Shown one piece after another: positions 12,946 through 54,567 of a stretch of DNA of 64,000 nucleotides. The stretch comes from Candidatus Rokuibacteriota bacterium. Lineage in GTDB: Bacteria; Methylomirabilota; Methylomirabilia; Rokubacteriales; DASRDR01. The notes under the pieces were generated by a model. The model saw nothing but the letters and a program-made list of their open reading frames with translations. It searched no databases and had not been told where the DNA came from. The stretch covers positions 2,354-66,353 of the forward strand of contig JBIOTN010000223.1 of the NCBI GenBank assembly GCA_044866005.1, read 5' to 3'. Numbering within the stretch: the stretch's first letter is position 1; the number at the start of each line of letters is the position of its first letter. The translations under genes and the position numbers were made by a program.

Positions 12946-13428
12946 ATGGCCGGGCGCGGGAGCCGGACCGGGTCGGGCAGGAGCGTCCTGGCCGCCGCGC
13001 TGCTCGCCGCCGGCTGTGCCGGCGCAGCGCCGGCCCCGTCGGCCGGCCCGGACGGGGGGACGCCGCCCGCCGCGGGTAGCGCGCCGCCGTCCGTCACCGC
13101 CCCCGCGCCGGCCGACGTCCCGCCGGCCCCCCCGCCGGTCTCGTCGGTCCCCCCGCCCCCGGCTGTCCCCGGGCCCGTGCCGGGCCCCGCCCCGGCGCCG
13201 GCGCTGGAAAGCGCGGAGGACCGCGCCCTGGCGGCGCGCGTCGAGCGCGCGCTCGCCACCGATCCGGCGCTCCGCGACGCGGTCATCGAGGCGGTCGTCC
13301 GCCAGGGGCAGGTGACGTTGAACGGAACGGTCCCGGGCTTCCGCGAGCGCGCGCGGGCGATCGAGGCGGCGCTCCGCGTCCCCGGCGTCCGGAGCGTCCG
13401 GCCGCGTCTCGTCATCCAGCAGCCGTGA
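12946..13428 (+). CDS. BON-domain lipoprotein
   Basis: Lipobox LLAAGC. Long Pro-rich linker. C-terminal BON domain: DRALAARVERALATDPALRDAVIEAVVRQGQVTLNGTVPGFRERARAIEAALRVPGVRSVRPRLVI. Confidence 0.6.
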   Translation: MAGRGSRTGSGRSVLAAALLAAGCAGAAPAPSAGPDGGTPPAAGSAPPSVTAPAPADVPPAPPPVSSVPPPPAVPGPVPGPAPAPALESAEDRALAARVERALATDPALRDAVIEAVVRQGQVTLNGTVPGFRERARAIEAALRVPGVRSVRPRLVIQQP

Positions 13429-14252
13429 CGGCGCGCACCCGACGCGACGCGAGCGGCGTCGACGTCGCGCTGCCCGAGCGCGCGTCCCGCATCGTCTCGC
13501 TGATCCCCAGCATCACCGAGCTCTTGTTCGCCCTCGACCTCGACGAGCGGATCGTCGGCGTCACGCGCTTCTGAACCGAGCCGCCGGCCCGGGTGGCCGC
13601 GAAGGCGAAAGTGGGGCGGGAGAAGGACCCCGACGTGGACCGGATCCGCGCGCTCGCGCCGGACCTCGTCGTCGCGAACGTCGAGGAAAACCGCCGAGAC
13701 GTCGTCGAGCGCCTCCGCGCGGCCGGGGTCCCGGTCTGGGTCACCTTCCCGCGGACGGTGCGGGAGGGGATCGCGCTCGTCCGCGAGCTCGGCGAAGTCA
13801 CGGGCACCGCCGCCCGCGCGGGCCCGCTCGCCGCCGATCTCACGGCGCGCTACGCGGCGACGGCGGAGGCGACGGCCGCGCGGCCGGCGGCCCGTGTGTT
13901 CTGTCCGATCTGGCGGGGTCCCTACATGACGATCAACCGCGACACCTACGTCGACGACATGCTCCGCGTCTGCGGCGGGGCGAACGTCTTCGCCGATCGG
14001 GCGGAGCGCTACCCGGCGGTCACGCTGGCCGAGGTGGCGGCCCGGGCGCCCGAGGTCATCCTGCTGCCGGACGAGCCGTACCGCTTCCGGGCGGCGCACC
14101 GGCGCGACTTCGAGCCCTATCCCGGGATCCCGGCCGTCGCGACGGGTCGCGTCCACCTCGTGGACGGGAAGCTCCTCTCCTGGTACGGGCCGCGGATCGC
14201 GGACGCGCTCGCGCGGCTTCCCGCGCTCCTGGGAGGGCCGCCGTCAGGGTGA
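13425..14252 (+). pseudogene. BtuF/TroA-like periplasmic binding protein (Peripla_BP_2, cobalamin/iron-siderophore type) interrupted by an in-frame TGA at 13572-13574
   Basis: GTG 13425 overlaps the stop of the BON gene (GTGA). N-terminal 49 codons give RIVSLIPSITELLFALDLDERIVGVTRF, then TGA, then TEPPARVAAKAKVGREKDPDVDRIRALAPDLVVANVEE... The reading frame continues across the TGA. The TGA sits where related proteins usually have the Cys of a CDYP-like motif. No signal peptide is evident. Confidence 0.5.
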
Positions 14253-22577: not shown

Positions 22578-22704
22578 CGGGGCGGTGCGCGCGCCCTACC
22601 CGCGTCCGCTCGCGGAGGGCGCGGCGAAGGGAGAGGCCGCCTCCTGGCGGAGGCCCGCGAGCCCCACCCCCGCGCCCCGGCCGTCGCCGCCGGGAGGGCG
22701 GGCG

Positions 22705-24174
22705 ATGCCCGTCCTCGCGGGCGTCGGCGTCGCGGGGACGGCGACGCTCGCGCTCGGCCTGACCGTGGGCTCGCTCGGCTGGCCGCTCGTCCACGACGCG
22801 CCGATCATGCACTACGTCGCGGCGCGCCTTCTCGGCGGCGCGACGCCGTACCGCGACTTCTTCGACATGAACTTCCCCGGCGTCTACCTGGTCCACGCGC
22901 TCGGGCTCGCCCTCCTCGGTGGGGGCGATGCCGGCTTCCGGGCCCTCGACCTCCTGCTCCTCGGCGGCACGGTGGCCGGGCTCGCCGTCACGCTCGTGCC
23001 CTTCGGGCGCGGCGCCGTCGCCGCCGGCGCGGCGCTCTTCTGGCTCTACCACGTGGCGGGGGGCGCCTGGCGCGCCGGGCAGCGGGACCTGATCCTCTGT
23101 CTGCCGCTGGCCTGGATGACCGCGGCCGCCCTCGCCGACGTCGCGAGGCCACGGCTCGGCCGCCTCGCGCTGGCGGGCGCGGCCCTGGGGGCGGCGGTCT
23201 GGATCAAGCCCCACGCCCTCCTGCTCCTCCCGCTCCTCGCCGCCCTGGCCTGGCGGCGGCCGCCCGGCTCGCGGGCCGCGGCGGTCGCGGCGCTGGCCGG
23301 CGGCATCGCCGCGCCGGCCGCGGGCGTCGTCGGCTGGCTCGCCGCAGCCGGCGCCCTGCCGGCGTTCCTCGACATCGTCTGGCACTACCTCGTCCCGCTC
23401 TACAGCCGCCTCGGGCGGACCCCGGTGCTCGCCGCCCTCCTCACGCACGACGTCGGGCCGCCGATCGTGGCGGGGCTCGGGCTCTGGGCGGTCGGCGGCG
23501 GCGTCGCGCTCTGGCGCGGCGGGGAGCGCGGGGCGCGGCTTTCCGTGCTCGCGGCGGGCGTGCTCTACGGCGCGCTTCACTTCGTCGTCCAGGGCAAGGG
23601 CTGGGAATATCACCTTTACCCCCTGGCCCTGTTCGCGGTGGCCCTCGGGGCGGCGGGGTTCGGGACGGCGCTCGCCGGCCACCGGCCGCGCGCCGCGGGG
23701 GCGCTCCTCCTGGCGCTCGTCCTCACGGCCGGGGCGCTCGGGGCCAAGGGGAGCCGGAACGTCGAGTCGGACTGGATCCGGCAGAAGCACGCGCGCGCGC
23801 TCGCGGTGGCGGCCGCGCTCGAGCCCGTCGCCCGGGCCGGCCGGTCGATCCAGGTCCTGGACACGACCGACGGCGGCGTCCACGCGCTCTACCTCCTGCG
23901 CGCGCGCCAGCCGACCCGCTTCCTGTACGACTTCCACTTCTATCACGACGTCGAGCACCCGTACGTCCGCCGGCTCCGGGCCGAGCTCCTCGCCGGGCTC
24001 ACCGCGCGGCCGCCGGGCGCGGTCGTGCTCTTCGAGCGCGGCTGGCCGCGGGGCGACTACGAGCGGCTGCGCCGGTTCCCCGAGCTGGCCGCGTGGCTCG
24101 CCGCCGGCTACCATCTGGTCCACGAAGGCGACGGCTACCGCCTCTATCTGCCCGTGGCGCCGTCACCGGGATAA
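22705..24174 (+). CDS. polytopic membrane protein, putative GT-C-fold glycosyltransferase-like protein (inserted between livG and livF)
   Basis: ATG 22705 preceded by GGGAGGG. About 12 predicted TM helices. N-terminal periplasmic loop DAPIMHYVAARLLGGATPYRDFFDMNFPGVYLVHAL resembles the Asp-containing first loop of GT-C enzymes (ArnT/PMT/DUF2029-like). C-terminal soluble domain. Confidence 0.45.
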   Translation: MPVLAGVGVAGTATLALGLTVGSLGWPLVHDAPIMHYVAARLLGGATPYRDFFDMNFPGVYLVHALGLALLGGGDAGFRALDLLLLGGTVAGLAVTLVPFGRGAVAAGAALFWLYHVAGGAWRAGQRDLILCLPLAWMTAAALADVARPRLGRLALAGAALGAAVWIKPHALLLLPLLAALAWRRPPGSRAAAVAALAGGIAAPAAGVVGWLAAAGALPAFLDIVWHYLVPLYSRLGRTPVLAALLTHDVGPPIVAGLGLWAVGGGVALWRGGERGARLSVLAAGVLYGALHFVVQGKGWEYHLYPLALFAVALGAAGFGTALAGHRPRAAGALLLALVLTAGALGAKGSRNVESDWIRQKHARALAVAAALEPVARAGRSIQVLDTTDGGVHALYLLRARQPTRFLYDFHFYHDVEHPYVRRLRAELLAGLTARPPGAVVLFERGWPRGDYERLRRFPELAAWLAAGYHLVHEGDGYRLYLPVAPSPG

Positions 24175-28674: not shown

Positions 28675-29163
28675 CTAGGAACACGACGCGCCCCCCACGA
28701 GCGGCGCGCAGCCATCGAGCCCTTCGGTGAACTTCACCCTGGTGACGACCCCGGCAAAGATCTCCAGCTGGCAGAGCATGGAAAAGGACGGGGCGCCGTT
28801 CCGGGTGGTGGCGACGGCAAGCTCCCAGCAGCCCTGGCGCAAGGCCGGACTGGCCGGAAAGGTCACGAGCCCCCCGTTCTGCGCCGCCCCCGCCGGGGTC
28901 AGCTGGATCGTGCCTTCCCCGCTCGTCGCGCCATCGTCATCGGTGGTCCCGGTCAGCCATGCCCCGGCCCAGCTCACCTTGACCTGGTTCGGCACGGGGA
29001 TCGACGGGTCCAGCTGGACTTCGATCCCGACCCGCGGGGGATCGAGGTCCACGACGGCGGTCGGGCCACAGCCGGGCGCCCCCATGCCCAGGAGGGGGAC
29101 GATCCAGAACCACCTCCAGGACCGCCGCCCGCCGGCGTGCCCCGCCTCACCAGAGGCTGACAT
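28675..29163 (-). CDS. lipoprotein of unknown function (paralogue of 28164-28640)
   Basis: Start at ATG 29161-29163 (MSASGEAGHAGGRRSWRWFWIVPLLGMGAPGC, lipobox MGAPGC). Conserved GGLVTFPASPALRQGCWELAV...LCQLEIFAGVVTRVKFTEGLDGC. Confidence 0.5.
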   Translation of the reverse strand: MSASGEAGHAGGRRSWRWFWIVPLLGMGAPGCGPTAVVDLDPPRVGIEVQLDPSIPVPNQVKVSWAGAWLTGTTDDDGATSGEGTIQLTPAGAAQNGGLVTFPASPALRQGCWELAVATTRNGAPSFSMLCQLEIFAGVVTRVKFTEGLDGCAPLVGGASCS

Positions 29164-30421
29164 TCGCTTGCAGCTCGACATACCCGTTCCTCTTGACCAC
29201 CGCGAGGTGAGTAGGGCTCAGGCGGAGCGCCCGCGGCCCCTCGGCCGTCTCGAAATGAAAGGACGCCGTGCTGACCGGCAGGGGGGGCAGGGTCAGCGAC
29301 GGCGCCACGTTGATGTGAATCGGCAGCGCCACCTCGTATCCGGAGACGCGGAAGACCGGCTGAATGCTGGTCGGCTCCACCGTCACGCGGATGGCGGTCT
29401 GCCCCTGAAAGCGTCCAGGCGCTGGCTGTCCATGCGAGGGGTGGAGCTGGGGGACGACGACGAGCGTCGTCACGGCCCGCACGTCGGCGCTGGTCTCGAG
29501 GTTGGCGTTGAAGCCGACGTTACACCAGTGGGCCTCGACGTCCCCGGTGATGCGCACCCGGGCCGGGCTGATGCCAAACCGCAGGTCCTTGACCTTGGCG
29601 GTCCAGTCGGAGCTGCAGATCGTCGTGCATTGAGTCCCGAACGGCGTCCACGTGCACGCTTTGTAGGCGTAATGGCCCTTGAACTGGATCGGCTCGACTT
29701 TGTCCGCCAGCTCGTTGAACGCGGACTCGTACACCTTGAGGACGCCCCTCCCCGTCGGGACGAGGCTGCCCAGGTCGCTCCCGGCCAGCCCGACATCCGC
29801 CGCGCGGGCCAGGCGGAAGACGGGCGCGGGGGGAGCGAATCCCAGGTCGACGGTGATCACCAGCTTCCCGGGCAAATACTGGGGTGTCGCGCTGACGAGG
29901 CGCGCGATGAGGGTGCGAGTGCCCCCGTCCGGGAGCGACAGGGTGAGCTCCTGGGCCTCGATGGGCGTGGACACGCTGTACAGTCTGGCCACGTCCACCT
30001 GCGTGATGACGGCGCCGCCGACCTGGACCGGCACCGCGAACGTCCCCACGTTGATCCGCAAGCGATGGCTCGCGGCGTCGAAGCTCACGGAGGCCGGGAC
30101 CGTCCGGGTCTCCGTGCTCGGTTGGCCTCCCACGACGGCGTTCACGGTCGCGGTAAAGGTCATCGCCCCTTCGGCGAGCGTGAACGCGGCGTTCGTCACC
30201 GTCCACTGCCAGGGTACGGGGGCGCCCCCGCCCGCGGGCTGATGGAGGCCGGCGTTCGCGAGGGATCCCAGCCGCCCGATCAGGCCGTTCAGGGTCACCT
30301 GAGAGACCTCGAGCGTCGCGTTCTGGGCCGTCGGCGCCGGCGCCGATCCTGGCTGGGCCACACCGGCGGCGGGAAGGACCAGCGCGGCGCAAAGGAGGAG
30401 GACCGCCAACCGTGCTCTCAT
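29147..30421 (-). CDS. secreted protein of unknown function (424 aa), first gene of a three-gene secreted/lipoprotein cluster
   Basis: Start at ATG 30419-30421 (MRARLAVLLLCAALVLPAAGVAQP). Cys pairs: YKACTWTPFGTQCTTICSSDW, HWCNVGF. Overlaps the next gene's start by 17 nt. No family recognised. Confidence 0.5.
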   Translation of the reverse strand: MRARLAVLLLCAALVLPAAGVAQPGSAPAPTAQNATLEVSQVTLNGLIGRLGSLANAGLHQPAGGGAPVPWQWTVTNAAFTLAEGAMTFTATVNAVVGGQPSTETRTVPASVSFDAASHRLRINVGTFAVPVQVGGAVITQVDVARLYSVSTPIEAQELTLSLPDGGTRTLIARLVSATPQYLPGKLVITVDLGFAPPAPVFRLARAADVGLAGSDLGSLVPTGRGVLKVYESAFNELADKVEPIQFKGHYAYKACTWTPFGTQCTTICSSDWTAKVKDLRFGISPARVRITGDVEAHWCNVGFNANLETSADVRAVTTLVVVPQLHPSHGQPAPGRFQGQTAIRVTVEPTSIQPVFRVSGYEVALPIHINVAPSLTLPPLPVSTASFHFETAEGPRALRLSPTHLAVVKRNGYVELQANVSLW

Positions 30422-30595
30422 TGCCGACTCTCCCGGGGCCACCGGTCGGCCCGTGATGCGCGTCGCCGTCGATGGGACATCGAGATCGAGGGGTGGATTC
30501 GACGCTAGATCACGGTGGCGAACCTGTCAAGGAGCGGGGACTCCGCCGTCGCGAGCCGATCGTGGCGCGAGGCCGTCGCGGCCGGTGGAGCCGGC

Positions 30596-32263
30596 TCAGT
30601 CGCGGGGCGCCAGGCCGAGCGCGCGGAGGGCCTGCTCGCGGAGCTTGCCCTTCTGGACCTTGTCCCCGTGCGGCCCGGGCGTCCGCGGGACGTCCTCCAC
30701 GACCCAGATGTGGCGCGGGACCTTGAAGCCGGCGAGCTTCCCGCGACAGTAAGCGAGAAGCTCCGCCGCCGTCGCCGTCTGGCCGGGTCGCGGGATGACG
30801 TAGGCCGCGGCGACCTCCCCGAGCCGGGCGTCCGGCACGCCCACGACGAAGGCCTGCGCGAGCCGGGGGTGCTCCATCAGGAAGGCCTCGATCTCGGCCG
30901 GCGCGACCATGAAGTGGCCGATGCGGAGCGTCTCCTTGAGCCGGCCGAGGAAGAAGGTGTGCCCGACCCCGTCCTGCACGGCGAGGTCTCCCGTGTGGAG
31001 CCAGCCCGCGGCGTCGATCGCCGCGGCGGTCTCCTCCGGCTTCTCGTAGTAGCCGCGCGTGACGAGGGGCCCGCGGAGGAGCAGCTCGCCCGGCTCGCCC
31101 GCGACCCGGTCGGCGCCGGACGCCGGATCCACGACGCGCGCCTCGAGCGTCTCGGCCGGGCGCACCCCGGCGTGGCGGCGGAGCTCGAGCGGGTCGTCGG
31201 GGTAGGGGCAGAGGGCGAGCGCGTTCACCTCGGTCATGCCGTAGGGCTGGACCGCACCGGGCATGGGGAGCCGGTGCACGACCTCGTCGAAGAGGCCGTG
31301 ACGGCCGCCGCCGGTCATCGCCACGCCGCCGGTCCGCAGGCTGCGGCGGTCGTACCGGTCGCGCGCCGGGTGGTCCAGCACGGCCGTCAGCATCGCGTCC
31401 ACGGCGTTCCAGACCGTGATCCCCTCCTGCTCGATGAGCCGGAGGGTGTCGAGCGGGTCGAAGAACTCCTCGAGCACCAGGCTCGCGCCATGCGTCAGCG
31501 TCATGAGCGGGATGACCAGCCCACCCCAGGTGCCGGAGAAGGGCAGGGTGTGGAGCACGCGATCGCGCTCCGTGAGGCCGAGCCGCTCGCCGGAAGCCCA
31601 GCCGTGGGGCAGGCAGTTCTCGTGGCTGATCATCGCCCCCTTGGGGAACGAGGTCGTCCCCGAGGTGTAGAGGAGGGTGAAGACGTCGTCCGGCGCGATC
31701 CGCCGCTCGCGGTCGCGGAGCACGGGGGCGAGCGCGGGGTCGTCGCCGATCTCCACGACGTCCTGGTAGCGGAGAGTGCCCCCGTAGACGTCCTCGCTCA
31801 CGCAGATCACCCGGCGCAGCCGCGGAAACCGCTCGAACCGGAGGGCATCCGGATCGGCCGTGGGCAAGCCGGGCAACAGCTCGGCGAGGATCTCGAGGAA
31901 GTCGATCTGCAGGGCGTGGTCGAGGCAGACCAGGGTGGCCGTGTCGGACTGGCGCAGGATGTAGTCGAGCTCGCGCGTGCGGTAGCGCGGGTTGAGCGCG
32001 ACCACGACGGCGCCGATCCGCGCGCAGGCGTGCTGGACGACGAGCCACTCCGGCCGGTTCGTGAGCCAGAGGGCGACCTTGTCGCCCGGCCCGAGCCCGA
32101 GCGCCAGGAGGCCGCCCGCCAGGCGCCGGACCTCCCGGCGGAACGCCGCGTAGGTGAGCCGCCGCTCGCGGAGCACGATCGCCGCGCGATCGGCGAAGCG
32201 CTCCGCGACGGCCTCCAGCATCGCCGGGAGCGTCGCGTCCCGGTAGGGATTGGCCGCGATCAC
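30596..32263 (-). CDS. AMP-dependent acyl-CoA synthetase/ligase (long-chain-fatty-acid--CoA ligase-like)
   Basis: AMP-binding motif LLYTSGTTSFPKGAMISH, YGMTE, TGDLAVQDGVGHTFFLGRLKETLRIG, C-terminal GKLREQ. Start taken at GTG 32263 (VIAANPYRDATLP...); ATG 32221 is the alternative. Confidence 0.85.
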   Translation of the reverse strand: MIAANPYRDATLPAMLEAVAERFADRAAIVLRERRLTYAAFRREVRRLAGGLLALGLGPGDKVALWLTNRPEWLVVQHACARIGAVVVALNPRYRTRELDYILRQSDTATLVCLDHALQIDFLEILAELLPGLPTADPDALRFERFPRLRRVICVSEDVYGGTLRYQDVVEIGDDPALAPVLRDRERRIAPDDVFTLLYTSGTTSFPKGAMISHENCLPHGWASGERLGLTERDRVLHTLPFSGTWGGLVIPLMTLTHGASLVLEEFFDPLDTLRLIEQEGITVWNAVDAMLTAVLDHPARDRYDRRSLRTGGVAMTGGGRHGLFDEVVHRLPMPGAVQPYGMTEVNALALCPYPDDPLELRRHAGVRPAETLEARVVDPASGADRVAGEPGELLLRGPLVTRGYYEKPEETAAAIDAAGWLHTGDLAVQDGVGHTFFLGRLKETLRIGHFMVAPAEIEAFLMEHPRLAQAFVVGVPDARLGEVAAAYVIPRPGQTATAAELLAYCRGKLAGFKVPRHIWVVEDVPRTPGPHGDKVQKGKLREQALRALGLAPRD

Positions 32264-32339
32264 GCCCTCACCCCGCCCCGCCGACACGCGAGCCACTCCA
32301 CGCGACGCGCTCGACGTGCTAGCGCGTTCCAACTTCCGA

Positions 32340-32380
32340 GAGGGGCATCGGGGGGGTCTTCCGAGACCCCCCCGAAGAGC
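32340..32380. repeat. family A hairpin repeat (CATCGGGGGGGTCTTCCGAGACCCCCCCGA)
   Basis: Sequence identity with the cores at 45818-45848 and 55478-55508. Confidence 0.7.
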
Positions 32381-33877
32381 TCATACGTACGTGCGCTCGG
32401 CCCGGCGGAGGGCCCGGTAGCGCTCGAAGGCCCGGCGCTCGTCCTCGAGTCCCACGAGCGAGCGGAGCGTGCTGCCGCGGAAAGTGTGGGCGAGCATCTT
32501 CCACCAGTTCCGCAGGAGGAACCCCGGGCTGTGTCGGAGCACCGCCCCCATGTGGCGGAGCTTGAGCCACCGCTCGGCGCGCCAGCGCATGAACTCGATC
32601 TCGTCGGCCGCCAGGTGCGCGCTCCGCACCACGGCCGTCGTGCCGTCGTACTCGTCCACGTTCTCGTTGACGACCAGGCCGCGCTCGCGAAACTCCCTGG
32701 TCATGGGCGTCCGGGGATAGGGGGTGGGGTGCTGGATGTAGGGGTAGTCGACGTAGCGCCGGGCGAAGTCGAGGTTCGCGGTCACCGACTCCCGCGTGTC
32801 GTCGGGGTTGCCGACGATCAGCCCGCCGACCACGTACATGCCGTGCCGGTGCAGGTGGTCGATCGCCGCGAGGGTCGCGTTGCCGGCTCGCCGGCCGTTT
32901 TCCCGCCTGAGGTTCTTCGCGGTCGCCCGGAGGAAGCGGAGATCCTGCTCCAGGACGTTCTCGATCCCGAGGAAGACGTAGCGGAACCCGGCCCGCCGCA
33001 TCAGCGGCGCGAGGGTGTCGCCGTGGCTGGCGATCGCGGACGTCATGGCCTGCACGGTGTACTCGAGGTCGTCGAGCCCGGCGTCCACGATGGCGCGGCA
33101 GAGCGCCGCGAAGCGCCGGACGTCGAGCGTGATGTTGTCGTCCACGAGGAAGATGGCCCGCGCGCCGTGCTCCCGGGCGTCGCGGATGTCCGCCAGCACC
33201 CGGTCGAACGCGTAGCGGTGGAAGTTCCGGCCCCGCATCTCGATGATCGAGCAGAAGCTGCAGTCGAACGTGCAGCCCCGCGAGGTCTCCACGACGTCCA
33301 CGGGACGACCGAGCAGCGTGTAGCCGCTCAGCACGCGCGCGGCCCGGCGGGGCGGGCGGATCTCGCCGCCCTCGAGGCCGGTGACCGGGCGATCCGGATT
33401 GTGGACGAACCCGGCCCCGCGCCGGTGGGAGAGCCCCCCGATCCGGTCCAGGGGAAGGCCGTGCTCCAGCGCCCGGAGAAGCTCCCGGAACGTGAGCTCG
33501 CCCTCGCCGCGGACGATGAAGTCGACCGCCCCGCCCGCGGCCGCGGCGTAGGCCTCGGCGGCCAGGCTCGGGTCGTAGCCCCCCACGACGATGCGCGCGG
33601 CCGGTCGCAGCGCCCGGCAGAGCTCGATGAGCCGGACCGCCGTCTTCCGCTGGAAGGTCATGATGGAGAGGCCGACGACGTCGGGCGCGCGCTCGCGCAC
33701 GAGCCGCTCGACGGTCTCGCGCACCCGGCGCTGGACCAGGATGAGGTCGGCGACCGCGACCTGGTGATGCGGATCCACGTTGCCGGCCAGCGAGGTCAGC
33801 GCGCCGTTCGGCATGCGGATGCCGATGGTCGGCATGTGTTCGAACGAATCGGGCATGGAGAGGAGCAGGACGTTCAT
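32381..33877 (-). CDS. B12-binding-domain radical SAM protein (class B radical SAM)
   Basis: N-terminal cobalamin-binding Rossmann (MNVLLLSMPDS...VVGLSIMTFQ...IVVGGYD). Radical SAM cluster motif CTFDCSFC. 498 aa. Confidence 0.85.
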   Translation of the reverse strand: MNVLLLSMPDSFEHMPTIGIRMPNGALTSLAGNVDPHHQVAVADLILVQRRVRETVERLVRERAPDVVGLSIMTFQRKTAVRLIELCRALRPAARIVVGGYDPSLAAEAYAAAAGGAVDFIVRGEGELTFRELLRALEHGLPLDRIGGLSHRRGAGFVHNPDRPVTGLEGGEIRPPRRAARVLSGYTLLGRPVDVVETSRGCTFDCSFCSIIEMRGRNFHRYAFDRVLADIRDAREHGARAIFLVDDNITLDVRRFAALCRAIVDAGLDDLEYTVQAMTSAIASHGDTLAPLMRRAGFRYVFLGIENVLEQDLRFLRATAKNLRRENGRRAGNATLAAIDHLHRHGMYVVGGLIVGNPDDTRESVTANLDFARRYVDYPYIQHPTPYPRTPMTREFRERGLVVNENVDEYDGTTAVVRSAHLAADEIEFMRWRAERWLKLRHMGAVLRHSPGFLLRNWWKMLAHTFRGSTLRSLVGLEDERRAFERYRALRRAERTYV

Positions 33878-34023
33878 CGCGGTGACTCCCGCGGCCTCGG
33901 GCGGCGGGCCGCCCGCTTGCTCCGGGGCCTGGCCGGAGTCTAGGCTGGAGCCGCCAGACGTGTCAACGCGCGCGTCGCCCGGGGGCGCCGGCGCGGCCGC
34001 ACGCGGCGGAAGGGACGGGCGTC

Positions 34024-35527: not shown

Positions 35528-36697
35528 ATGAACTTCGCCCTGACCGAGTCCCAGGAGCTGATCCGTAAGGAAGTCGCCGCGCTCGCGCGGACGTTCGGCT
35601 GGGAGTACTGGCGCGAGAAGGACCGGAAGGGCGAGTACCCGACCGAGTTCGTGGAGGCCTTCGCCCGGGCGGGCTGGCTCGGGCTCGTCATCCCCGAGCC
35701 CTACGGCGGCGCCGGGCTGGGGGTGACGGAGGCCTGCCTCATGCTCGAGGCGATCTGCGCCTCGGGGGCCGGCCTGTCCGGGGCGTCGCCGGTCCACTTC
35801 GCCGTCTTCCCGCCGATGCCCATCATCAAGCACGGCAGCGAGTCGCTGCGCCGCCGCGTCCTGCCCGGCATCGCCGCGGGGACCGTGCGCCTCGCCTTCG
35901 GCGTCACCGAGCCGGACGCGGGGACCGATACGAGCCGGATCCAGACGACCGCCCGGCGCGACGGCCAGGGCTTCGTCGTGACCGGACGGAAGGTGTGGAC
36001 GTCGAACGCGCGGCATTCGCAGAAAATGCTCCTCCTGGCACGGACCACCCCGTACGACGCGGTCGGGCCGCGGAAGCTCGAGGGCCTGACGCTCTTCGTC
36101 GCCGACCTCGACCCGGCGACCGTGACGCTCCGCGAGATCGACAAGCTCGGCCGCGCGGCGGTCGACTCGAACGAGGTGGTCATCGACGGGCTCCGCGTCG
36201 CCGACGAGGACGTGGTCGGCGAGGTGGGCCGCGGGTTCTACCACCTGCTCGACTCGCTCAACCCCGAGCGGATCCTCGTCGCCGCCGAGGCGGTCGGCAT
36301 CGGGCGCGCGGCCCTCGACCGCGCCGCCGAGTACGCGCGCCAGCGCGTCGTCTTCGATCGGCCGATCGGGCAGAACCAGGCGATCGCTCACCCCCTGGCC
36401 GCGGCCTGGGCGCACCTGGAGGGCGCGTTCACGCTGGCGCTCCGCGCCGCCTGGCTCTTCGACCGCGGGCTTCCCTGCGGCGCCGAGGCGAACGCCGCCA
36501 AGCTCCTGGCTGCCGACGCCGGCTTCGCGGCCTGCGATGCCGCGCTCCAGACCTTCGGCGGCTTCGGCTACGCGAAGGAGTTCCACGTCGAGCGCCTGTG
36601 GCGCGAGGTACGCCTCTACAAGATCGCGCCGGTGTCCCAGGAGATGGTCCTGAACTACCTCGCCGAGCGCGTGCTGGGCCTGCCCAAGTCCTACTGA
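35528..36697 (+). CDS. acyl-CoA dehydrogenase
   Basis: MNFALTESQELIRKEVAALAR... with ACAD N, middle (AFGVTEPDAGTD) and C (QTFGGFGYAKEFHVERLWREVRLYKI) domains. Confidence 0.85.
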   Translation: MNFALTESQELIRKEVAALARTFGWEYWREKDRKGEYPTEFVEAFARAGWLGLVIPEPYGGAGLGVTEACLMLEAICASGAGLSGASPVHFAVFPPMPIIKHGSESLRRRVLPGIAAGTVRLAFGVTEPDAGTDTSRIQTTARRDGQGFVVTGRKVWTSNARHSQKMLLLARTTPYDAVGPRKLEGLTLFVADLDPATVTLREIDKLGRAAVDSNEVVIDGLRVADEDVVGEVGRGFYHLLDSLNPERILVAAEAVGIGRAALDRAAEYARQRVVFDRPIGQNQAIAHPLAAAWAHLEGAFTLALRAAWLFDRGLPCGAEANAAKLLAADAGFAACDAALQTFGGFGYAKEFHVERLWREVRLYKIAPVSQEMVLNYLAERVLGLPKSY

Positions 36698-36711
36698 CGG
36701 CCTGGAGGTTC

Positions 36712-39285
36712 GTGACTCTCGCGCGCTGGCTCCGCACCCATCGGGGCCTCGCGGCCTTCGCCGCGGGGGCCTTCCTCACGCTGGTCGCCCTCGCGGTGGT
36801 CGGGTACCTCGTGCTCTCGGACCAGCGCCGCTCGGCGCGCGTCCTCGCCGCGGCGCTCTCCCAGGCGCTGGCGCGCGAGGTGCGCATCGGGCGTGTGACC
36901 GACCTCAACACGCAGCGCGTCGTGATGCGCGGCGTCGAGTTGCCCCGGGAAGGGGGCTGGCCGGCGAGGGTCACGGCCGACCGCGTGGAGGCGACCGGGC
37001 CGCTCCTGGCGGCGGCGCGCGGGGAGGCGGCGCCCATCCGGCTCACCGTGAGCCGGCCCGTCGTGGAGCTCGGGCCCGGGGGCCCGGCCGCGGGCCTGGC
37101 CGCGCTGGAGACGGCGCGAACGGGCCTGGCGGGGTTTCTCCGCGGACCGATGCTGCTCGATCTCGCGCTGACGGGTGGGACCGCGCAGCACGGGGGCGAG
37201 GTCACGGTATTCGATCTGACCCTCCGCAAGGGACGCGGGGAGGCCAGGGGCGAGCTGGTCGCGCGCGACGCCCGCGGCGCGCCCCTGGTGGTCACGCTCG
37301 AGGGCCGGCTCGAGGGCGACACGGCGCGCCTCCTCGCGAGCACGCGCGGGCGCGCGGCGCCGCTCGCGGCCTGGCTGCCCGCCGCCAGCGCCGCGGCCCT
37401 CGGCGACCGCGACCTCGACGTGCGCCTGACGCTCGACCTGGCCCCCGGGGGGCAGCTCCTGGCCCGCGGGTCGCTCGCGCTCGGCGACGTCATCGGGGCG
37501 GAAGGGGCGGCGACCGTCCGGGATGGCCTCGTCGAGCTCAGCCTCGCGCGCACGGTGGCCGATCTGGCCTTCGCCGCCTCGGTGGCGCAGCTCGGCTGGC
37601 AGCCGGCGGGGCGCGTCGAGCTGACCGACGTGACGGCGGCGTGGCGGCCCGAGGCAGGCGTGCGGCCCACCGCGCGCGCCACCCTCCGGCTCGCCTCGCT
37701 CGGGCTGCCCGCCGCGGCCGTCGGCGCGGAGGTGGCCGCCGACGGCGTGGACGGTCGCGTCACGCTCGAGCCGGCCGGGGCCGGCTTCGCGCTGGACGGG
37801 GACCTCGGGGCGAGCCACGTGCGGGTCGGGGGCCTCGACGTGGCGCCGGCGCGGACGCGCTACCGCGTGACGCTCGACGCGCAGGGGGGCGTGAGCCGGG
37901 CCGACCTCGACGGCCTGAGCGCGCGCATCGAGGAGGCCGCGCTCCAGGGGCGGCTCCACTACGACGTCGCGGCGCGGCGACTCGAGGGACAGCTCGGCGG
38001 CGAGGACGTGGAGGCCGCCGGGCTCGCCCGGCGGCTCGCGCCGGGCTGGCTCGGCCCGCGCGACCGCCTCCGGCTGACCGGGCTCCGCGTCACGCTGACC
38101 GGCCTCGATCCCGTGGAGCGGCGCGCGGGCGCCGCGCGGCTCGAGGCGCGCGGCCTCCGGCTCGGCCGGCCGGACGGCGAGCTTGCGAGCGGCCCCGCGA
38201 CGGCCCGGGCCGACCTCGCGCGGAACGGGGCCACGGTCGCGCTCACCCTCGATGGCGTCACGGGGTCGCTTCCCGTGTTGAGCGGCAGCCTCCCGCGGGT
38301 CGTGGGCTCGCTCGAGCTCGGCCGCGGTGCGGACGGCGCGCTCGCGGCCGAGCGCGCGACGCTCGCCGCCCGCGACCGCCAGGGGACGGAGCTTCTCACC
38401 GCGGACCTCGTGCGCGCCGCGCCGGCCGGGCGTTTGCGGCTCTCCGCGCGCGCGCCGGCGCTCGAGCGGCTGGGGGGACTCTGGCCCGCGGTGAGCCGCC
38501 GGGTGAACGGATCGGCGCGGCTCGACGTCGAACTGCCAGGGCCCGGGCTCGAGGCGGCGGACGGCCGGCTCGCGCTGACGGTGCCGGAGGCCGAGCTCTG
38601 GGACGGGAAAGTGGCGGTGCGCGACCTGGAGGCCGATCTGCCCGTGCGGCGCGGCACCGCGATGCCCGGGGAGCCGCCGTGGGGACGCCTGGACGTCGGG
38701 GAGCTGATCGCCTACGGCGTCGTGGCGCGTGACGTGACGACGCCGGCGCGCGTCTGGAGGGACCGCCTGAGCTTGAACGACCTGAGCTACGCTCTGTATT
38801 CTGGTGACGGCAAGGGCTGGAGCGAGATCGAGCTCCAGCCCGCGGCGCTCGCCGCGCGCGGCCAGCTCACCGGGGAGCGGGTTCGGGTCGAGGAGTTCAT
38901 CGGCGCCTACGGCATTCGGGGCGGGACCATGACGGGCCTGCTCCGCTACAGCGTGGACTACGAGTATCGCGCGGGCCATCTCGGCGTGAACGGCCGCTTC
39001 GAGGTGCCGCGCGGGGGGACGGTGAACATCGAGCTCTTGAACCGGCTGCTGGTGCACGCCCAGGCGGACCCCACGGGCATCCTCCGCCAGACGCTCGAGA
39101 ACCTGACCGCCTTCGAGTACAAGGACGCGGCGGCCGAGGTGCACTCCGCGGCGGACGACCTGCGGGTGAGCTTGACCCTGCGAGGCCGGGAGCGGCTCCT
39201 GATCCTGCCGCCCAAGGTACGGGAGATCAACATCCGGAACATGCCGCTGTCGTTCGTGGCGCGGCAGTTCCCCGGATTGCACTGA
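36712..39285 (+). CDS. large membrane-anchored AsmA-like/YdbH-like protein (putative intermembrane lipid-transport protein)
   Basis: GTG 36712 preceded by GGAGG. Single N-terminal TM (GLAAFAAGAFLTLVALAVVGYLVL). ~850 aa, Ala/Leu/Arg-rich beta-rich body. C-terminal region (RYSVDYEYRAGHLGVNGRFEVPRGGTVNIELLNRLL...REINIRNMPLSF) resembles the YdbH C-terminal domain. Followed by a YnbE/YdbL-like gene, as in the ydbH-ynbE-ydbL operon. Confidence 0.5.
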   Translation: MTLARWLRTHRGLAAFAAGAFLTLVALAVVGYLVLSDQRRSARVLAAALSQALAREVRIGRVTDLNTQRVVMRGVELPREGGWPARVTADRVEATGPLLAAARGEAAPIRLTVSRPVVELGPGGPAAGLAALETARTGLAGFLRGPMLLDLALTGGTAQHGGEVTVFDLTLRKGRGEARGELVARDARGAPLVVTLEGRLEGDTARLLASTRGRAAPLAAWLPAASAAALGDRDLDVRLTLDLAPGGQLLARGSLALGDVIGAEGAATVRDGLVELSLARTVADLAFAASVAQLGWQPAGRVELTDVTAAWRPEAGVRPTARATLRLASLGLPAAAVGAEVAADGVDGRVTLEPAGAGFALDGDLGASHVRVGGLDVAPARTRYRVTLDAQGGVSRADLDGLSARIEEAALQGRLHYDVAARRLEGQLGGEDVEAAGLARRLAPGWLGPRDRLRLTGLRVTLTGLDPVERRAGAARLEARGLRLGRPDGELASGPATARADLARNGATVALTLDGVTGSLPVLSGSLPRVVGSLELGRGADGALAAERATLAARDRQGTELLTADLVRAAPAGRLRLSARAPALERLGGLWPAVSRRVNGSARLDVELPGPGLEAADGRLALTVPEAELWDGKVAVRDLEADLPVRRGTAMPGEPPWGRLDVGELIAYGVVARDVTTPARVWRDRLSLNDLSYALYSGDGKGWSEIELQPAALAARGQLTGERVRVEEFIGAYGIRGGTMTGLLRYSVDYEYRAGHLGVNGRFEVPRGGTVNIELLNRLLVHAQADPTGILRQTLENLTAFEYKDAAAEVHSAADDLRVSLTLRGRERLLILPPKVREINIRNMPLSFVARQFPGLH

Positions 39286-49640: not shown

Positions 49641-50405
49641 TCAGGGGGCCCGGCCGTCCTCCGAGACGCCCACGATGACGTAGGTGCCGCTCCGCTCGTC
49701 GCGCTTGAGACTCACGACCTTGTGCTTCACCGCGTCCTCGAGGAGCTTCGAGAAGGTCGAGTAGCCGTAGTAGGACTCGTTGAAGGCCGGGTTCTTCCGG
49801 ATCATCGTCTGCTTGACCATCGAGCCCCAGAGGACCTCCTTGTTCTCCCGCTGGAGGGCCTGCACGGCGTCGATGAGCTGGGCGAAGACCTCCGACTTCT
49901 TCTCCGGCAGGCCCTTGAGCAGCGTGCCCTTTTTCGCCTCGCGCGTGAGGTCCTCGTAGAAGATGAACTCGTCGCAATTCGCGACGAGGAGCTCCGAGGA
50001 GGAGTTCTTCACGCCGAGCCCGATCACGTACTTGTCGTTCTCGCGGAGCTTCGAGACGAGCGGGGAGAAGTCCGAGTCGCCGGACACGATGGCGAAGGTG
50101 TCGATGTGCTCGTTCTTCTGCGTGAGGTCCATGGCGTCGACGACCATGCGAATGTCCGCCGAGTTCTTCCCGCTGTAGCGGCTCTGCGGGATGTCGATCA
50201 GCTCGATGGCGGCCTCGTGGAACGGCCGCTTGTACTCGGTGTAGCGGTTCCAGTCCGCGTAGGCCCGCTTCACCATGATCTTGCCCTTCTCCACCAGCCG
50301 CTCGAGCACGAGCTTGATCTCGAAGCCCTTGTACTGGGCGTCCTTGATGCCGCGGGCGATGTTCTCGAAATCGATGAAGAGGGCGAGCTTGCGTTCTTCG
50401 TTCAT
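49641..50405 (-). CDS. NYN-domain (LabA-like, PIN-fold) protein with C-terminal OST-HTH/LOTUS domain
   Basis: Start at ATG 50403-50405 (MNEERKLALFIDFENIARGIKDAQ...). NYN core: VKRAYADWNRY...AIVSGDSDFSPLVSKLRENDKYVIGLG. C-terminal OST-HTH: FAQLIDAVQALQRENKEVLWGSMVKQTMIRK...YGYSTFSKLLEDA. Confidence 0.7.
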   Translation of the reverse strand: MNEERKLALFIDFENIARGIKDAQYKGFEIKLVLERLVEKGKIMVKRAYADWNRYTEYKRPFHEAAIELIDIPQSRYSGKNSADIRMVVDAMDLTQKNEHIDTFAIVSGDSDFSPLVSKLRENDKYVIGLGVKNSSSELLVANCDEFIFYEDLTREAKKGTLLKGLPEKKSEVFAQLIDAVQALQRENKEVLWGSMVKQTMIRKNPAFNESYYGYSTFSKLLEDAVKHKVVSLKRDERSGTYVIVGVSEDGRAP

Positions 50406-50690
50406 GGGGCGGTTCCTCTGCCGGCTCCGGTCACGGCACGGGCGGCTCGCGACGGCGGCGGGTTCGCGGGTCGGCCGGAACGGCGCGGGGATCCGTGCTC
50501 CGGGCTCGATCGGCCCACGCTGGTAGGGTCGGTCATACCTTCGGCGCTCATTATACGCCGTCGCCGCGGCGCGCCCAACAGGAAGTCGGACGGCGCCTTG
50601 ACGCCCCGGCCGGGTTTGGCGTAGCGTCGGAACGCTCTGGACCTCGTCGATTCGATCCGCGTTCGGCCTGCGAGCCAGGAGGATCACGCC

Positions 50691-51188
50691 ATGCACCGTT
50701 TCTCGTTCCGCGCCATCCGCTCATGCGTCGCCATCGCCGTGCTCGTCCTCGGTGCAGCGGCGCTCTGGCAGGCCACCGCGTCGGCCGGCAAGGACGACGC
50801 GGAGGTGCGCGCCCTGGTCCCCCGGATCGTCGCGGCGTGGGAGACGCTCACCATCACGAAGGTCGATCCCTACTACGCCACCGATGCCGACCTGGCCTTT
50901 TTCGACATCGCGCCGCTGAAATACGCCAACTGGGCGGAATACCGCGCGGGCGTCCAGAAGATGTTCTTCGAGCCCAACCGGAGCCTCAAGTTCAAGCTCA
51001 ACGACGACCTGCGCGTGCGCGGCCAGGGCACCGTGGCCTGGGTGACGTTCACCTTCGGCGCGGACGTCGTCGCCAAGCAGGGCGCCGCGTCGCATCTGGA
51101 CGGCCGGTGGACGATGGTCCTCGAGAAGCGCCAGCGGGGGTGGATCGTGGTGCACGAGCACGTTTCGGTCCCGCTGGCCGGCGGCTGA
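50691..51188 (+). CDS. NTF2-like (SnoaL/DUF4440-type) secreted protein
   Basis: ATG preceded by AGGAGGA. Signal peptide. IVAAWETLTITKVDPYYATDADLAFFD...VRGQGTVAWVTFTF...DGRWTMVLEKRQRGWIVVHEHVS is the typical NTF2-like cone pattern. Confidence 0.55.
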   Translation: MHRFSFRAIRSCVAIAVLVLGAAALWQATASAGKDDAEVRALVPRIVAAWETLTITKVDPYYATDADLAFFDIAPLKYANWAEYRAGVQKMFFEPNRSLKFKLNDDLRVRGQGTVAWVTFTFGADVVAKQGAASHLDGRWTMVLEKRQRGWIVVHEHVSVPLAGG

Positions 51189-51896: not shown

Positions 51897-52529
51897 ATGA
51901 AGATCGCGATCATCGGCGCCGGCAACGTCGGCGGCACGCTGGGCACGGCGTGGGCGGCGAAGGGGCACGACGTCGTCTTCGGCGTGCGGGACCCGCGGGA
52001 TACCCGGGTGCAGGCGCTGGTCAAGGCCGCGGGCGACCGGGCACGCGCGGCGAGCGTGCAGGAGGCCGCGGCCGCGTGCGACCTCGTCGTGCTGGCCACG
52101 CCGTGGGACGCCACCCAGGACGCCATCAAGTCGGCGGGGCCCCTGGCCGGCAAGATCCTCGTCGACGCGACCAACCCGCTCGAGCCGGATCTGTCCGGGC
52201 TCGCCCTCGGCCACCACACCTCGGCCGGGGAAGAGGTCGCGCGCCGGGCGCCGGGGGCGAAGGTGGTGAAGGCGTTCAACACGATCGGCGCGCAGCACAT
52301 GGCCAACCCGCGATTCGGGAGCCAGCGCGCGAGCCTGTTCCTCTGCGGGGACGATGCCGGCGCGAAGAAGACCGTGGCCGGGCTGGCGGAGGCGCTCGGG
52401 TTCGAGGCCGTCGACGCGGGCCCCCTCGCCCAGGCGCGGCTGCTCGAGCCCCTGGCGATGCTCTGGATCTCCCTGGCCTACGCCCAGGGGCAGGGGACCG
52501 ACATCGCCTTCAAGCTGCTGCGGAAATAG
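51897..52529 (+). CDS. NADPH-dependent F420 reductase-like / NAD(P)-binding oxidoreductase (Npd family)
   Basis: MKIAIIGAGNVGGTLGTAWAAKGHDVVFGVRDP Rossmann motif and ...DATNPLEP...KAFNTIGAQHMANP, typical of the Npd/F420-dependent NADP oxidoreductase family. Confidence 0.7.
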   Translation: MKIAIIGAGNVGGTLGTAWAAKGHDVVFGVRDPRDTRVQALVKAAGDRARAASVQEAAAACDLVVLATPWDATQDAIKSAGPLAGKILVDATNPLEPDLSGLALGHHTSAGEEVARRAPGAKVVKAFNTIGAQHMANPRFGSQRASLFLCGDDAGAKKTVAGLAEALGFEAVDAGPLAQARLLEPLAMLWISLAYAQGQGTDIAFKLLRK

Positions 52530-52541
52530 CGAGGGAGGACG

Positions 52542-53546
52542 ATGAGCGACTCGACGACGAACGGCGCGCAGCGGATCACGCCGCCGGCCCTCGACGCCGC
52601 CCTCCGGCGCGGCGAGCGCCTGGCCGTCCTCGACGTCCGCCGGCGCGAGGCGTGGACCTCGGATCCCGCGCGGATTCCCGGCGCGATCTGGCTCCCGCTC
52701 GAAGAGGTCCCGCAGCGGGCGCGCGAGCTGCCGGCCGACGCTCACCTGGTCGTCTACTGCTCCTGACCCGGCGAAGCGACCAGTGCCCGGGTGGCACGGT
52801 GGCTGTCGGGGCAGGGGTTCCCCCGCGTCTCCGTCCTGAAGGGCGGTCTCGCCGGGTGGCGTGACGCGGGGTTCGCCGTGGACCGGCTCGAGGGCGAGCC
52901 GCCGGCGCTCGGCGAGCCGGGAGACGGCCGCGGTCGGCTCGAGCACGGCCGGGCGTCGTTCCTGCCCAGCCTGGCCGACCGGTACCTCCTCGACGGGGCG
53001 CTCCCCAGCCGACGCCGCCTGACCACGCTCTTCGTCGACATCGCCGGCTCGACGCGGCTTCTCGCCCACTATCCGCCCGAGAAGGTCCTCGGCGTCGTCC
53101 AGCGCTTCATGCGGCTCGTCACGGACGTCGCCATCGCCTACTGCGGCGACGTGAAAGACTTCGAGGGCGACGGCGCGCTGCTCTACTTCGAGTCCACGGC
53201 GGAGGCCGCGGCGGCGGCGTTCGCGATCCGCGGGGCCCTCGCCACCGGGAGCTGTGACACCCAGCACCCCGTCACGGCCCGCATGAGCCTGACGACGGGC
53301 GAGGTCGTCGTGGGGATCGTGGGCTCGACGATGCGCCAGGCGATCACGCTCATCGGCCCGAGCGTCAGCATCGGCGCCCGGCTGCTCAAGCAGGTCGACC
53401 CCGGGGGGATCATCGCGAGCGGCGAGGTCGTGGAGGCGCTCCGCTCCGAAGCGTCGGCGCTCGCCGCGGAGTTCCGGCTCCTCGACCCCGCCTTCGAGGT
53501 GCAAGGCGGCGACGGCATCACCGTGGCGAGCTACGTCACGGCCTGA
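52542..53546 (+). CDS. rhodanese domain - class III adenylate/guanylate cyclase fusion, interrupted by in-frame TGA at 52764-52766 (possible selenocysteine, pseudogene, or sequencing error)
   Basis: Own translation: ...LAVLDVRRREAWTSDPARIPGAIWLPLEEVPQRARELPADAHLVVYCS-TGA-PGEATSARVARWLSGQGFPRVSVLKGGLAGWRDAGFAV... The rhodanese fold continues in the same frame across the TGA. The CHD domain follows: TLFVDIAGSTRLL, CGDVKDFEGDGALLYFES, RMSLTTGEVVVGIVGS, GPSVSIGARLL...GIIASGEVVEAL. The ORF track splits it into 52542-52766 and 52791-53546. Confidence 0.6.
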
Positions 53547-53577: not shown

Positions 53578-54567
53578 ATGCTATACTGGCCGCGGATGAT
53601 GCCGCGCGCGCCTGTCCTCGTCCTGTTGCTGCTGAGCCTCCTCGTCCTGCCGGCGGCGGCGGCCGGCGCGGTCGAGCTCTTCGTCACCAACACCCACTCG
53701 GGCACCATCGCCATCATCGACACCGCCCGCGACGAGGTCGTCGGGACGATCCCGCTCGGAGGCGGCGTGCCGAACCGGACCGTCGCCACGCCGGACGGCC
53801 GGCAGGTGTGGGTGATCCACGACAAGACGCGCAAGATCAGCATCGTGGACACGGCGACGCGGAAGGTCCAGCGCCAGGTCAAGATCGGGCAGTGGCCGTA
53901 CAACCTCGCGTTCTCGCCCGACGGCCGCTACTGCTGGGTCCTCGACTGGGGCGACACGAGCCAGCTCATCGTCTACGACATCGCCAAGGGCGCCATCGAG
54001 AGTGCGATCGAGGTGAGCACGTGGCCGGCGCACGGGATCTTCTCGCGTGACGGCCGGATCTTCTGGGTGACGAGCGAGACGGCCGGGAACGTCGCCGTCG
54101 TGGACGCCGTGCACCGGAAGATCATCGAGACCCTGCCCTCGGGTGGGGACGCCATGGGCCTGGCGCTGACGGCCGATGGCCAGTACGTCTTCGTGGGGAA
54201 CGGCGAGGAGAAGACGGTCTCCAAGGTGGACGCCCGCACCTACCGGATCGTGGCGACGGTCAAGCTCAAGGGCCCCGTGCACGACGTGGTGCTGACCCCG
54301 GACGGCCGGTTCCTCTACGCGACGCTCCGCACGGTGAACACGATCGCGGTCATCCGGACCCAGGACCTCGAGGTCACGACCCAGATCCCGCAGCCGGGCT
54401 ATCCGGACCTCGTCCTCATGGCGCCGGACGGCACCAAGGCGTACGCGACCAACCGGCGCGCCGACGTGGTCTCGGTCATCAGCCTGGCCGATCACCGGGA
54501 GGTCAAGCGCATCGCGACCGGCAAGGGGCCGCACGGGATGGCCCTGGTCCCGCCGCCCCATCCGTGA
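53578..54567 (+). CDS. YVTN-family beta-propeller repeat protein, secreted
   Basis: Signal peptide. Repeated ~40-aa units: TPDGRQVWVIHDKTRKISIVD, SPDGRYCWVLDW, SRDGRIFWVTSETAGNVAVVD, TADGQYVFVGN, TPDGRFLYATLRTVNTIAVI, APDGTKAYATNRRADVVSVI. Confidence 0.7.
   Translation: MLYWPRMMPRAPVLVLLLLSLLVLPAAAAGAVELFVTNTHSGTIAIIDTARDEVVGTIPLGGGVPNRTVATPDGRQVWVIHDKTRKISIVDTATRKVQRQVKIGQWPYNLAFSPDGRYCWVLDWGDTSQLIVYDIAKGAIESAIEVSTWPAHGIFSRDGRIFWVTSETAGNVAVVDAVHRKIIETLPSGGDAMGLALTADGQYVFVGNGEEKTVSKVDARTYRIVATVKLKGPVHDVVLTPDGRFLYATLRTVNTIAVIRTQDLEVTTQIPQPGYPDLVLMAPDGTKAYATNRRADVVSVISLADHREVKRIATGKGPHGMALVPPPHP

Follow-up and report, generated by a model that had tools for sequence, protein, structure and literature searches.

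Rhodanese-type selenoproteins in which a cysteine and a selenocysteine (Sec, U) are separated by a single residue (CxU) were predicted by Kryukov and Gladyshev in 2004 and are entered as 'form 3' in the 2026 review PMC13188914. Such rhodaneses are known already, as are bacterial selenocysteine insertion sequence (SECIS) elements and class III cyclases coupled to sensor domains, while a fusion of the first with the last appears to be undescribed. The bacterial selenoproteins catalogued so far are, with few exceptions, redox enzymes or transport-linked proteins. The present analysis concerns a stretch of 64,000 nucleotides (nt) from a Candidatus Rokuibacteriota bacterium (assembly GCA_044866005.1, contig JBIOTN010000223.1, positions 2,354 to 66,353), referred to below as the window, of which positions 52542-53546 are read as one gene for a 334-residue selenoprotein consisting of a Cys-x-Sec rhodanese fused to a cyclase domain. 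The probability of this reading, which rests on comparative sequence analysis, is put at about 0.85, and the decoding of the internal UGA as Sec is well supported by the same comparisons.

Translation from the ATG at 52542 to the gene's own terminator, TGA 53544-53546, gives a single frame of 334 codons whose sole internal stop is the TGA at 52764-52766. This codon follows directly on ...HLVVYCS and falls in the active-site loop C73-S-U75-P-G-E-A-T-S; the tryptic peptide spanning residue 75 is predicted to be ELPADAHLVVYCS-U-PGEATSAR. In domain scans run with Cys placed at the internal TGA, Pfam recognised Rhodanese (PF00581) at residues 16-108 (E 1e-13, 51.9 bits against a gathering threshold of 22.2) and Guanylate_cyc (PF00211) at residues 159-305 (E 2.8e-6, 27.5 bits against a cut-off of 21.9). 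An earlier note on this DNA had described a rhodanese continuing in one frame through a TGA into a cyclase, and both the frame and the architecture are borne out. The content of G and C at third codon positions (GC3) is 0.93 upstream of the internal TGA and 0.88 downstream. A two-sided coding-signal test was passed by three sites of the window, namely the TGA of the cyclase gene, the TGA at 13572-13574 in a BtuF-like gene, and an ordinary stop followed by an in-frame gene; within a single gene the signal on both sides of a TGA is confined to the first two. A purine-rich Shine-Dalgarno sequence, GAGGGAGGA, precedes the ATG, and nothing comparable was found ahead of GTG 52791, from which gene callers start a fragment of 251 amino acids. 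A reassigned genetic code was considered and rejected, because TGA is the commonest normal stop in the window (24 TGA, 16 TAG and 3 TAA; n=43) and also ends the cyclase gene.

The 81 nt around the internal TGA are the same, base for base, in the NCBI contig and in the Logan assemblies SRR30692723 and SRR30692726, which come from different runs. A genome scan with one genome per species yielded 62 loci, 48 of them with the rhodanese-cyclase fusion, each of which was read in frame. Aligning the site with these homologues, as the earlier note had proposed, shows TGA at the residue-75 column in 39 of the 48 fusion loci and TGT or TGC in the remaining nine. A second TGA stands two codons earlier in 13 of the 39 (TGA-ACN-TGA, giving U-T-U), mostly in records labelled Binatia, and the fusion loci together contain 52 in-frame TGA, no TAA and no TAG. 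The labels of the carriers are Methylomirabilota/Rokubacteria/NC10, Binatia, Myxococcota, 'Deltaproteobacteria' and Tectomicrobia, the Cys forms include Myxococcota and Nevskiales-like gammaproteobacteria, and closed Binatia chromosomes (OZ246887.1, OZ241744.1 and OZ243961.1) are among the carriers of the fusion. At the first loop position every one of the 48 genome loci and of the eight full-length database homologues has Cys or Sec; at the second the residue is Sec, Cys or, in one case, Ser. Identity at the amino acid level extends over both halves of the protein and amounts to 59-76% for the closest Methylomirabilota-type relatives and about 38-48% for distant clades; the nearest relatives, at 75-76%, are records labelled Methylomirabilota.

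The U-T-U form occurs in loci L014 (3202-3210), L015, L017, L018, L020, L024, L025, L028, L029, L031, L033, L034 and L035, with a single hairpin after the pair of codons. Close relatives such as L021 and L031 differ at the first loop position only by TGC versus TGA.

The protein databases reflect the same interruption. Among the best 120 homologues in a collection of 5.8 billion proteins, 112 are fragments of about 250 amino acids that start with 'MARWL' just past the TGA, and eight are full length; in these full-length metagenomic proteins the motif VVYCSCPGEATSARVARWL has Cys in seven cases and Ser in one. A search with the N-terminal domain returned 69 matches, 61 of which are separate open reading frames (ORFs) of 72-74 amino acids ending in ...YCS, some of them annotated in records of Methylomirabilota and Rokubacteria as 'rhodanese-like domain-containing protein' or as 'hypothetical protein'.

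Downstream of the UGA lies a conserved hairpin, 52779-52800, which is present in each of the 40 Sec forms and sits inside a larger fold, 52773-52807. Its upper stem of 5 base pairs (bp) joins 52783-52787 (GUGCC) to 52793-52797 (GGCAC) and is closed by an apical loop of 5 nt at 52788-52792 (CGGGU), with G at loop position 2, which begins 21 nt past the UGA; a lower stem of 3 bp joins 52779-52781 (ACC) to 52798-52800 (GGU), A52782 being bulged. The minimum free energy (MFE) calculated for 52773-52811 is -18.3 kcal/mol. The bacterial SECIS model of Zhang and Gladyshev, as quoted in PMC13188914, allows 3-9 nt for the loop, 4-16 bp for the upper stem and 16-37 nt for the spacing, and calls for an MFE <= -7.5 kcal/mol and for a G at loop position 1 or 2, with G or U usually next to it; the hairpin of the cyclase gene lies within the quoted model in every respect. 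The 5-bp stem CCCGG/CCGGG right after the UGA, which the earlier note had offered as a possible element, was discarded: it is outside the MFE fold and differs from the conserved helix.

In a single sequence such a hairpin is regarded as non-diagnostic, and the weight lies in the comparison across sequences. With the helix specified by hand (alignment columns 20-27/33-40) and pairs counted over 40 Sec-type loci and over a Binatia-type subset, 85% of the cells were paired in the former and 97% in the 25 loci of the latter; shifting the partner by one column lowered pairing to 15-27%. Pair 24-36 connects the synonymous third positions of a Ser (AGY) and an Ala (GCR) codon, AGU..GCA exchanging for AGC..GCG, and is CG in 23 loci, UA in 12 and UG in four, never unpaired, and pair 21-39 switches from CG to UA by way of the codons AGU and CUA. 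Codons ending in A or U occur together where the pair needs both, third positions being otherwise mostly G or C (over 90% in the window). The covariation score was reached by none of 500 shuffles in either alignment. The automatic RNAalifold consensus for the 40 loci gave a poor structure of -2.2 kcal/mol. All five apical pairs are kept in 10/10 Methylomirabilota-type Sec forms, as against 1/7 of the nearest Cys or Ser forms. Where Cys forms encode the same peptide, SARVARW, they do so with different codons (GUC in place of GUG for Val, for instance), which break the helix or alter the loop. It is because TGA is the exclusive stop at this column, exchanges with Cys codons and is followed by a SECIS-type hairpin that decays in the Cys forms that the pattern is taken as a signature of Sec and not of leaky termination.

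The closest NCBIfam model to the N-terminal domain is NF041203, rhodanese_LYCAU (seleno)protein (E 2e-23, the next family being at 5e-9); the score of 82.4 bits is below the equivalog cut-off of 115, which makes the protein related to that family and not a member of it. The Y-C-x-U motif of NF041203 is present as VYCS-U, and Cys73 and Sec75 both fall inside the active-site loop. Which of the two is the canonical nucleophile depends on the alignment. BLASTP against Escherichia coli GlpE, taken as a lead only, places Cys73 on the catalytic Cys65, whereas HMMER against domain 2 of 1yt8 places residue 75 on the loop Cys, and gap-free spacing back from the GGLxxW motif likewise favours residue 75. 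The statement of the earlier note that the TGA lies two codons after the active-site Cys accordingly stands in the GlpE alignment and fails in that with 1yt8. In the AlphaFold model of a Cys homologue the strand ends at Tyr and is followed by a six-residue loop, C-S-C-P-G-E. Residues 73 and 75 are close enough in sequence that a selenenylsulfide could form between them, and a diselenide in the U-T-U forms.

A linker of low confidence and a conserved helix, FLPSLAxRYL, lead into the C-terminal domain. The structural model used was the AlphaFold prediction of the Cys homologue P0002 (62% identical; predicted local distance difference test score, pLDDT, 88), standing in for the window protein, and it matches CyaC, CyaB, Cya2, Rv1900c and Ma1120 with probability 1.0; the target-normalised TM-scores are 0.74-0.86 for the chains checked, CyaC, CyaB and Rv1900c. 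The metal-binding residues Asp166 (53037-53039) and Asp210 (53169-53171) and the transition-state residue Arg280 (53379-53381) are invariant and align with those of CyaC and CyaB in the profile alignment; Arg247 is also invariant. The motif CGDVKD[FY]EGDGALLYF is conserved family-wide. The subfamily is a narrow one: of 1.84 billion sequences, 50 representatives match at E<=1e-30. The domain is best described as a complete but non-canonical cyclase homology domain, as judged from the model, and its predicted activity is uncertain.

Stand-alone paralogues of this cyclase domain, lacking the rhodanese and carrying KD[FY]EGDGALLYF and the FLPGL..YL helix, were also encountered (L036, L045-L048, L053-L057 and L059-L061), several of them in the same genome as a fusion, for example L047 with L019 and L054 with L015.

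A number of observations weigh against a Sec-containing rhodanese-cyclase. No selA, selB or selD was found in the 64 kb window by Pfam scans of about 50 ORFs, and ARAGORN detected there no tRNA-Sec and indeed no tRNA at all. The z-score of the hairpin against shuffled sequences, taken on the single sequence, is only -1.85, and a simple SECIS-like hairpin follows about half of the TGA trinucleotides in this window of 73% GC. Because the loci compared are related, fewer independent events lie behind the covariation than the counts suggest, and almost the whole hairpin is retained in L066, a Cys form. No neighbouring gene is conserved across the family, those of the window being shared with its closest relatives only. 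In the cyclase domain the column of the canonical Asn (GxxxN..AAR), a transition-state residue that orients the ribose, is occupied by Ser276 (53367-53369), and the column of the base-specifying residue, Lys in adenylyl and Glu in guanylyl cyclases, by Asp206, four residues before the second metal-binding Asp.

The silence of the window on the Sec machinery could be turned in favour of a recent pseudogene, in which a nonsense mutation would have inactivated a former Cys rhodanese-cyclase gene, the more so as TGA is one base from TGC and TGT and Cys-type homologues exist. Such an accident would have had to strike the same column, always as TGA, in 39 species-level genomes of several phyla, and to leave coding constraint on both halves (in GC3 and in retained identity) together with a conserved structured element downstream; we consider it very improbable. 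An error of sequencing or assembly at 52764-52766, for which only the general possibility in a metagenome-assembled genome can be adduced, is scarcely credible in view of the exact agreement between the NCBI contig and the two Logan assemblies and of the same TGA in dozens of unrelated assemblies. Both of these options had been left standing by the earlier note beside decoding as Sec, and it is the last of the three that the two independent lines of assembly, the distribution over genomes, the exchange with Cys and the conserved, covarying hairpin strongly favour. Somewhat less remote, and still improbable, is a UGA that is real without being read as Sec, whether it separates two products (74 amino acids, and 251 from GTG 52791) or is read through by a near-cognate Trp or Cys tRNA. 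Gene callers do yield exactly these two ORFs; the split, however, falls in the middle of the active-site loop and leaves neither fragment with a complete rhodanese domain, the GTG lacks a Shine-Dalgarno sequence, and the exclusive use of TGA, the Cys exchange and the decay of the SECIS-model hairpin in Cys forms point to Sec.

A different doubt leaves the selenoprotein intact and concerns its C-terminal half, which might be a degenerate module for nucleotide binding or dimerisation, the rhodanese then being the catalytic part and acting as a sulfur or selenium transferase. Ser276, Asp206 and the modest Pfam score of 27.5 bits speak for this; both metal-binding Asp residues, Arg280 and Arg247 are nevertheless invariant, the Binatia-type relatives keep the Asn (GPSINLAARLL), and the predicted fold corresponds to a full cyclase homology domain, so we regard this alternative as unlikely. 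Ser at the Asn column is found in most Methylomirabilota-type relatives as well, and Myxococcota/Nevskiales-like relatives have His, Pro or Asn. His occupies this column in Rv1900c too. Lys205 adjoins Asp206, one residue earlier. The 'intact' class III cyclase of the earlier note is therefore upheld as regards the fold, the two Asp and the Arg, and not as regards the Asn and Lys columns, and the sequence points to no particular nucleotide substrate.

On the question of whether the organism uses Sec, a second gene of the window is relevant. Its product is a TroA/BtuF-like binding protein (NF038402, E 1e-55), and its in-frame TGA at 13572-13574 (local sequence GVTRF-U-TEP) stands at a column that has Cys in full-length homologues (GVTVF-C-TEP), as the earlier note had remarked; the closest relatives are cut short by gene callers. 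A hairpin CGGCC/CGGGU/GGCCG at 13585-13599 has a loop identical to that of the cyclase gene and a spacing of 15 nt after the UGA, one below the usual minimum of the SECIS model in the form quoted. This gene is a candidate for a second selenoprotein gene on the contig and, as such, indirect evidence that the organism decodes UGA as Sec. A BtuF-type selenoprotein (cd01144) is already listed in PMC13188914, where a Methylomirabilota metagenome-assembled genome with 63 predicted selenoprotein genes is also reported. The scan of the 64 kb window with Rfam at gathering thresholds returned no RNA family, and ARAGORN found no tRNA-Sec in 60 related loci. The 9-mer CCCGGGTGG common to both Sec sites is found once more, on the minus strand at 17548 in an uninterrupted ORF; this occurrence is a chance one. 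The coordinates of the features discussed are collected in Table 1.

Table 1. Features of the rhodanese-cyclase locus and of the second candidate selenoprotein gene (window coordinates)
Feature	Position	Strand	Basis
Shine-Dalgarno-like sequence GAGGGAGGA	52531..52539	+	read from sequence
Predicted complete selenoprotein gene, 334 codons: rhodanese, linker, class III cyclase homology domain	52542..53546	+	
Rhodanese domain, residues 16-108, with TGA in the active-site loop	52587..52865	+	PF00581 E 1e-13; NF041203 E 2e-23
Cys73 (TGC), first residue of C-x-U	52758..52760	+	Cys or TGA in every homologue examined
UGA, probably read as selenocysteine, residue 75	52764..52766	+	
SECIS-like hairpin	52773..52807	+	fold, covariation, comparison of Sec and Cys forms
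Class III cyclase homology domain, residues 159-305	53016..53456	+	Pfam, profile alignment, fold
TroA/BtuF-like binding protein, second candidate selenoprotein gene, TGA 13572-13574	13425..14252	+	

As to function, SelB carrying Sec-tRNA(Sec) would bind the hairpin and insert Sec at the UGA, and translation would thereby run on through the linker into the C-terminal cyclase homology domain. The Cys-x-Sec pair (Sec-x-Sec in the Binatia-type proteins) could then serve as a switch. On meeting an oxidant, sulfane sulfur or a selenium species it would pass into a selenenylsulfide, persulfide or perselenide state, and this state might alter the geometry of the cyclase dimer and so set the cyclic-nucleotide output. 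The signal would be read by proteins that bind cyclic nucleoside monophosphates (cNMP), such as the Crp/FNR regulators beside Cys-type homologues or the MscS-type channel of the window. A stand-alone, one-component cyclase that senses redox state or sulfane sulfur seems the most economical model, and we hold it at somewhat less than even odds. The fuller claim, that the gene represents an uncatalogued selenoprotein family in which Sec is the sensing residue and the Cys-x-Sec switch directly gates a non-canonical class III cyclase, is more tentative still.

The gene context gives little support to the sensing model. An npdG-like F420_oxidored gene (51897-52529) ends 12 nt upstream of the start codon, and a YncE-like beta-propeller gene (53578-54567) lies downstream. 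In Binatia-type loci (L013-L035, e.g. L023 1-4917) the order on the same strand is ABC-F ATPase, luciferase-like monooxygenase, a small ORF, the rhodanese-cyclase and NAD_binding_2, the last being 3-hydroxyisobutyrate dehydrogenase-like, and no clear functional link emerges from these conserved neighbours. The Cys-type homologues L064 and L065 adjoin divergent Crp/FNR regulators (2910-3623 and 751-1455, respectively, both on the minus strand) built of cNMP_binding and HTH_Crp_2 domains and followed by CopD-like and COX1-like genes. In loci L063 (1-3606) and L068 (541-2562), further Cys-type homologues stand directly downstream of Molybdopterin, Fer4, Nitrate_red_del, EB_dh and Haem_bd genes, a layout that resembles a type II dimethyl sulfoxide reductase operon (Nar/Ser/Clr/Ebd-like). 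The MscS-type channel with a C-terminal cNMP-binding domain (4167-5969, plus strand; PF00924, PF21082 and PF00027) is encoded 46 kb away from the cyclase gene and might act as a cNMP effector in this genome.

Several other genes of the window were recorded in passing. A protein with an NYN domain and a C-terminal OST-HTH/LOTUS domain is encoded at 49641-50717 on the minus strand, upstream of the cyclase gene by 2 kb; locus L003 contains a part of it that is 98% identical at the protein level, the cyclase gene of that locus being only about 75% identical. Long ORFs of high GC3 without a Pfam match at E<=1e-5 occupy 35569-39285 (plus), 22465-24174 (plus) and 29147-30526 (minus). The first of these comprises 1238 codons from stop to stop and ends with a TGA at 39283, and an in-frame DUF1318 gene with a signal-peptide-like start comes immediately after it. 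A B12-binding radical SAM gene adjoins an AMP-binding (acyl-CoA synthetase-like) gene at 30596-34021 on the minus strand.

Public annotation splits the gene into a 'rhodanese-like' ORF of 73-74 amino acids and an 'adenylate/guanylate cyclase domain-containing protein' of 251, a split that recurs in over a hundred sequence clusters of Methylomirabilota, Binatia, Myxococcota and other groups; the architecture, and with it the selenoproteome of these soil and groundwater phyla, is therefore under-counted. Nothing relevant to the combination of rhodanese and cyclase, with or without Sec, was found in the searchable literature, though the supplementary tables of Deng et al. 2026/BSepDB may list it; the word 'cyclase' is absent from the selenoproteome literature searched (reviews, the BSepDB paper and the deep-Sep paper), and no model in NCBIfam release 20 covers the fusion. 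Should the proposed function hold, selenium-dependent redox or sulfane-sulfur chemistry would be linked to cyclic-nucleotide signalling, the use of Sec would extend into signal transduction, the rhodanese would join the regulatory domains of class III cyclases, and two UGAs 6 nt apart would share one SECIS in the U-T-U forms. Cys-x-Cys, Cys-x-Sec and Sec-x-Sec forms occur side by side in this family as a natural series, which offers a ready system in which to study what Sec contributes to a sensor.

Among the known systems, the listed BtuF-type selenoprotein shares with the second candidate gene its TroA/BtuF-like character and an in-frame TGA at a Cys column of its homologues, but the motif given in PMC13188914 is CxxU, whereas the window gene has GVTRF-U-TEP. 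The form 3 rhodanese (NF041203) has in common with the predicted fusion protein the Cys-x-Sec pair in the active-site loop of its rhodanese domain and the existence of Cys homologues; it is a single-domain protein of about 126 amino acids, whereas the rhodanese described here is joined to a linker and a cyclase domain, and some relatives of the fusion have U-x-U, a motif that is listed for no rhodanese form in PMC13188914. Compared with the E. coli-type SECIS (the fdhF/fdnG paradigm), the hairpin is likewise stable, lies within the coding sequence just 3' of the UGA and has a small apical loop with G followed by G or U, at a spacing inside the range of 16-37 nt quoted in PMC13188914. It differs in a family-specific primary sequence, which arises because the hairpin also encodes the peptide S-A-R-V-A-R-W, and in that the U-T-U relatives would need one such element for both of their UGA codons.

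With respect to class III cyclases carrying N-terminal sensors, such as CyaC of Spirulina (1wc0) and CyaB of Pseudomonas aeruginosa (3r5g), the predicted protein shares the domain fold, the two Asp and the Arg, as well as the layout of sensor, linker and catalytic domain; Cya2 (2w01), Rv1900c (1ybt) and the BLUF-regulated cyclases OaPAC and bPAC are further among the closest structures. It departs from them in having Asp in place of Lys/Glu and, in the clade of the window, Ser in place of Asn, and in the nature of the sensor, which here would be a Sec-containing rhodanese.

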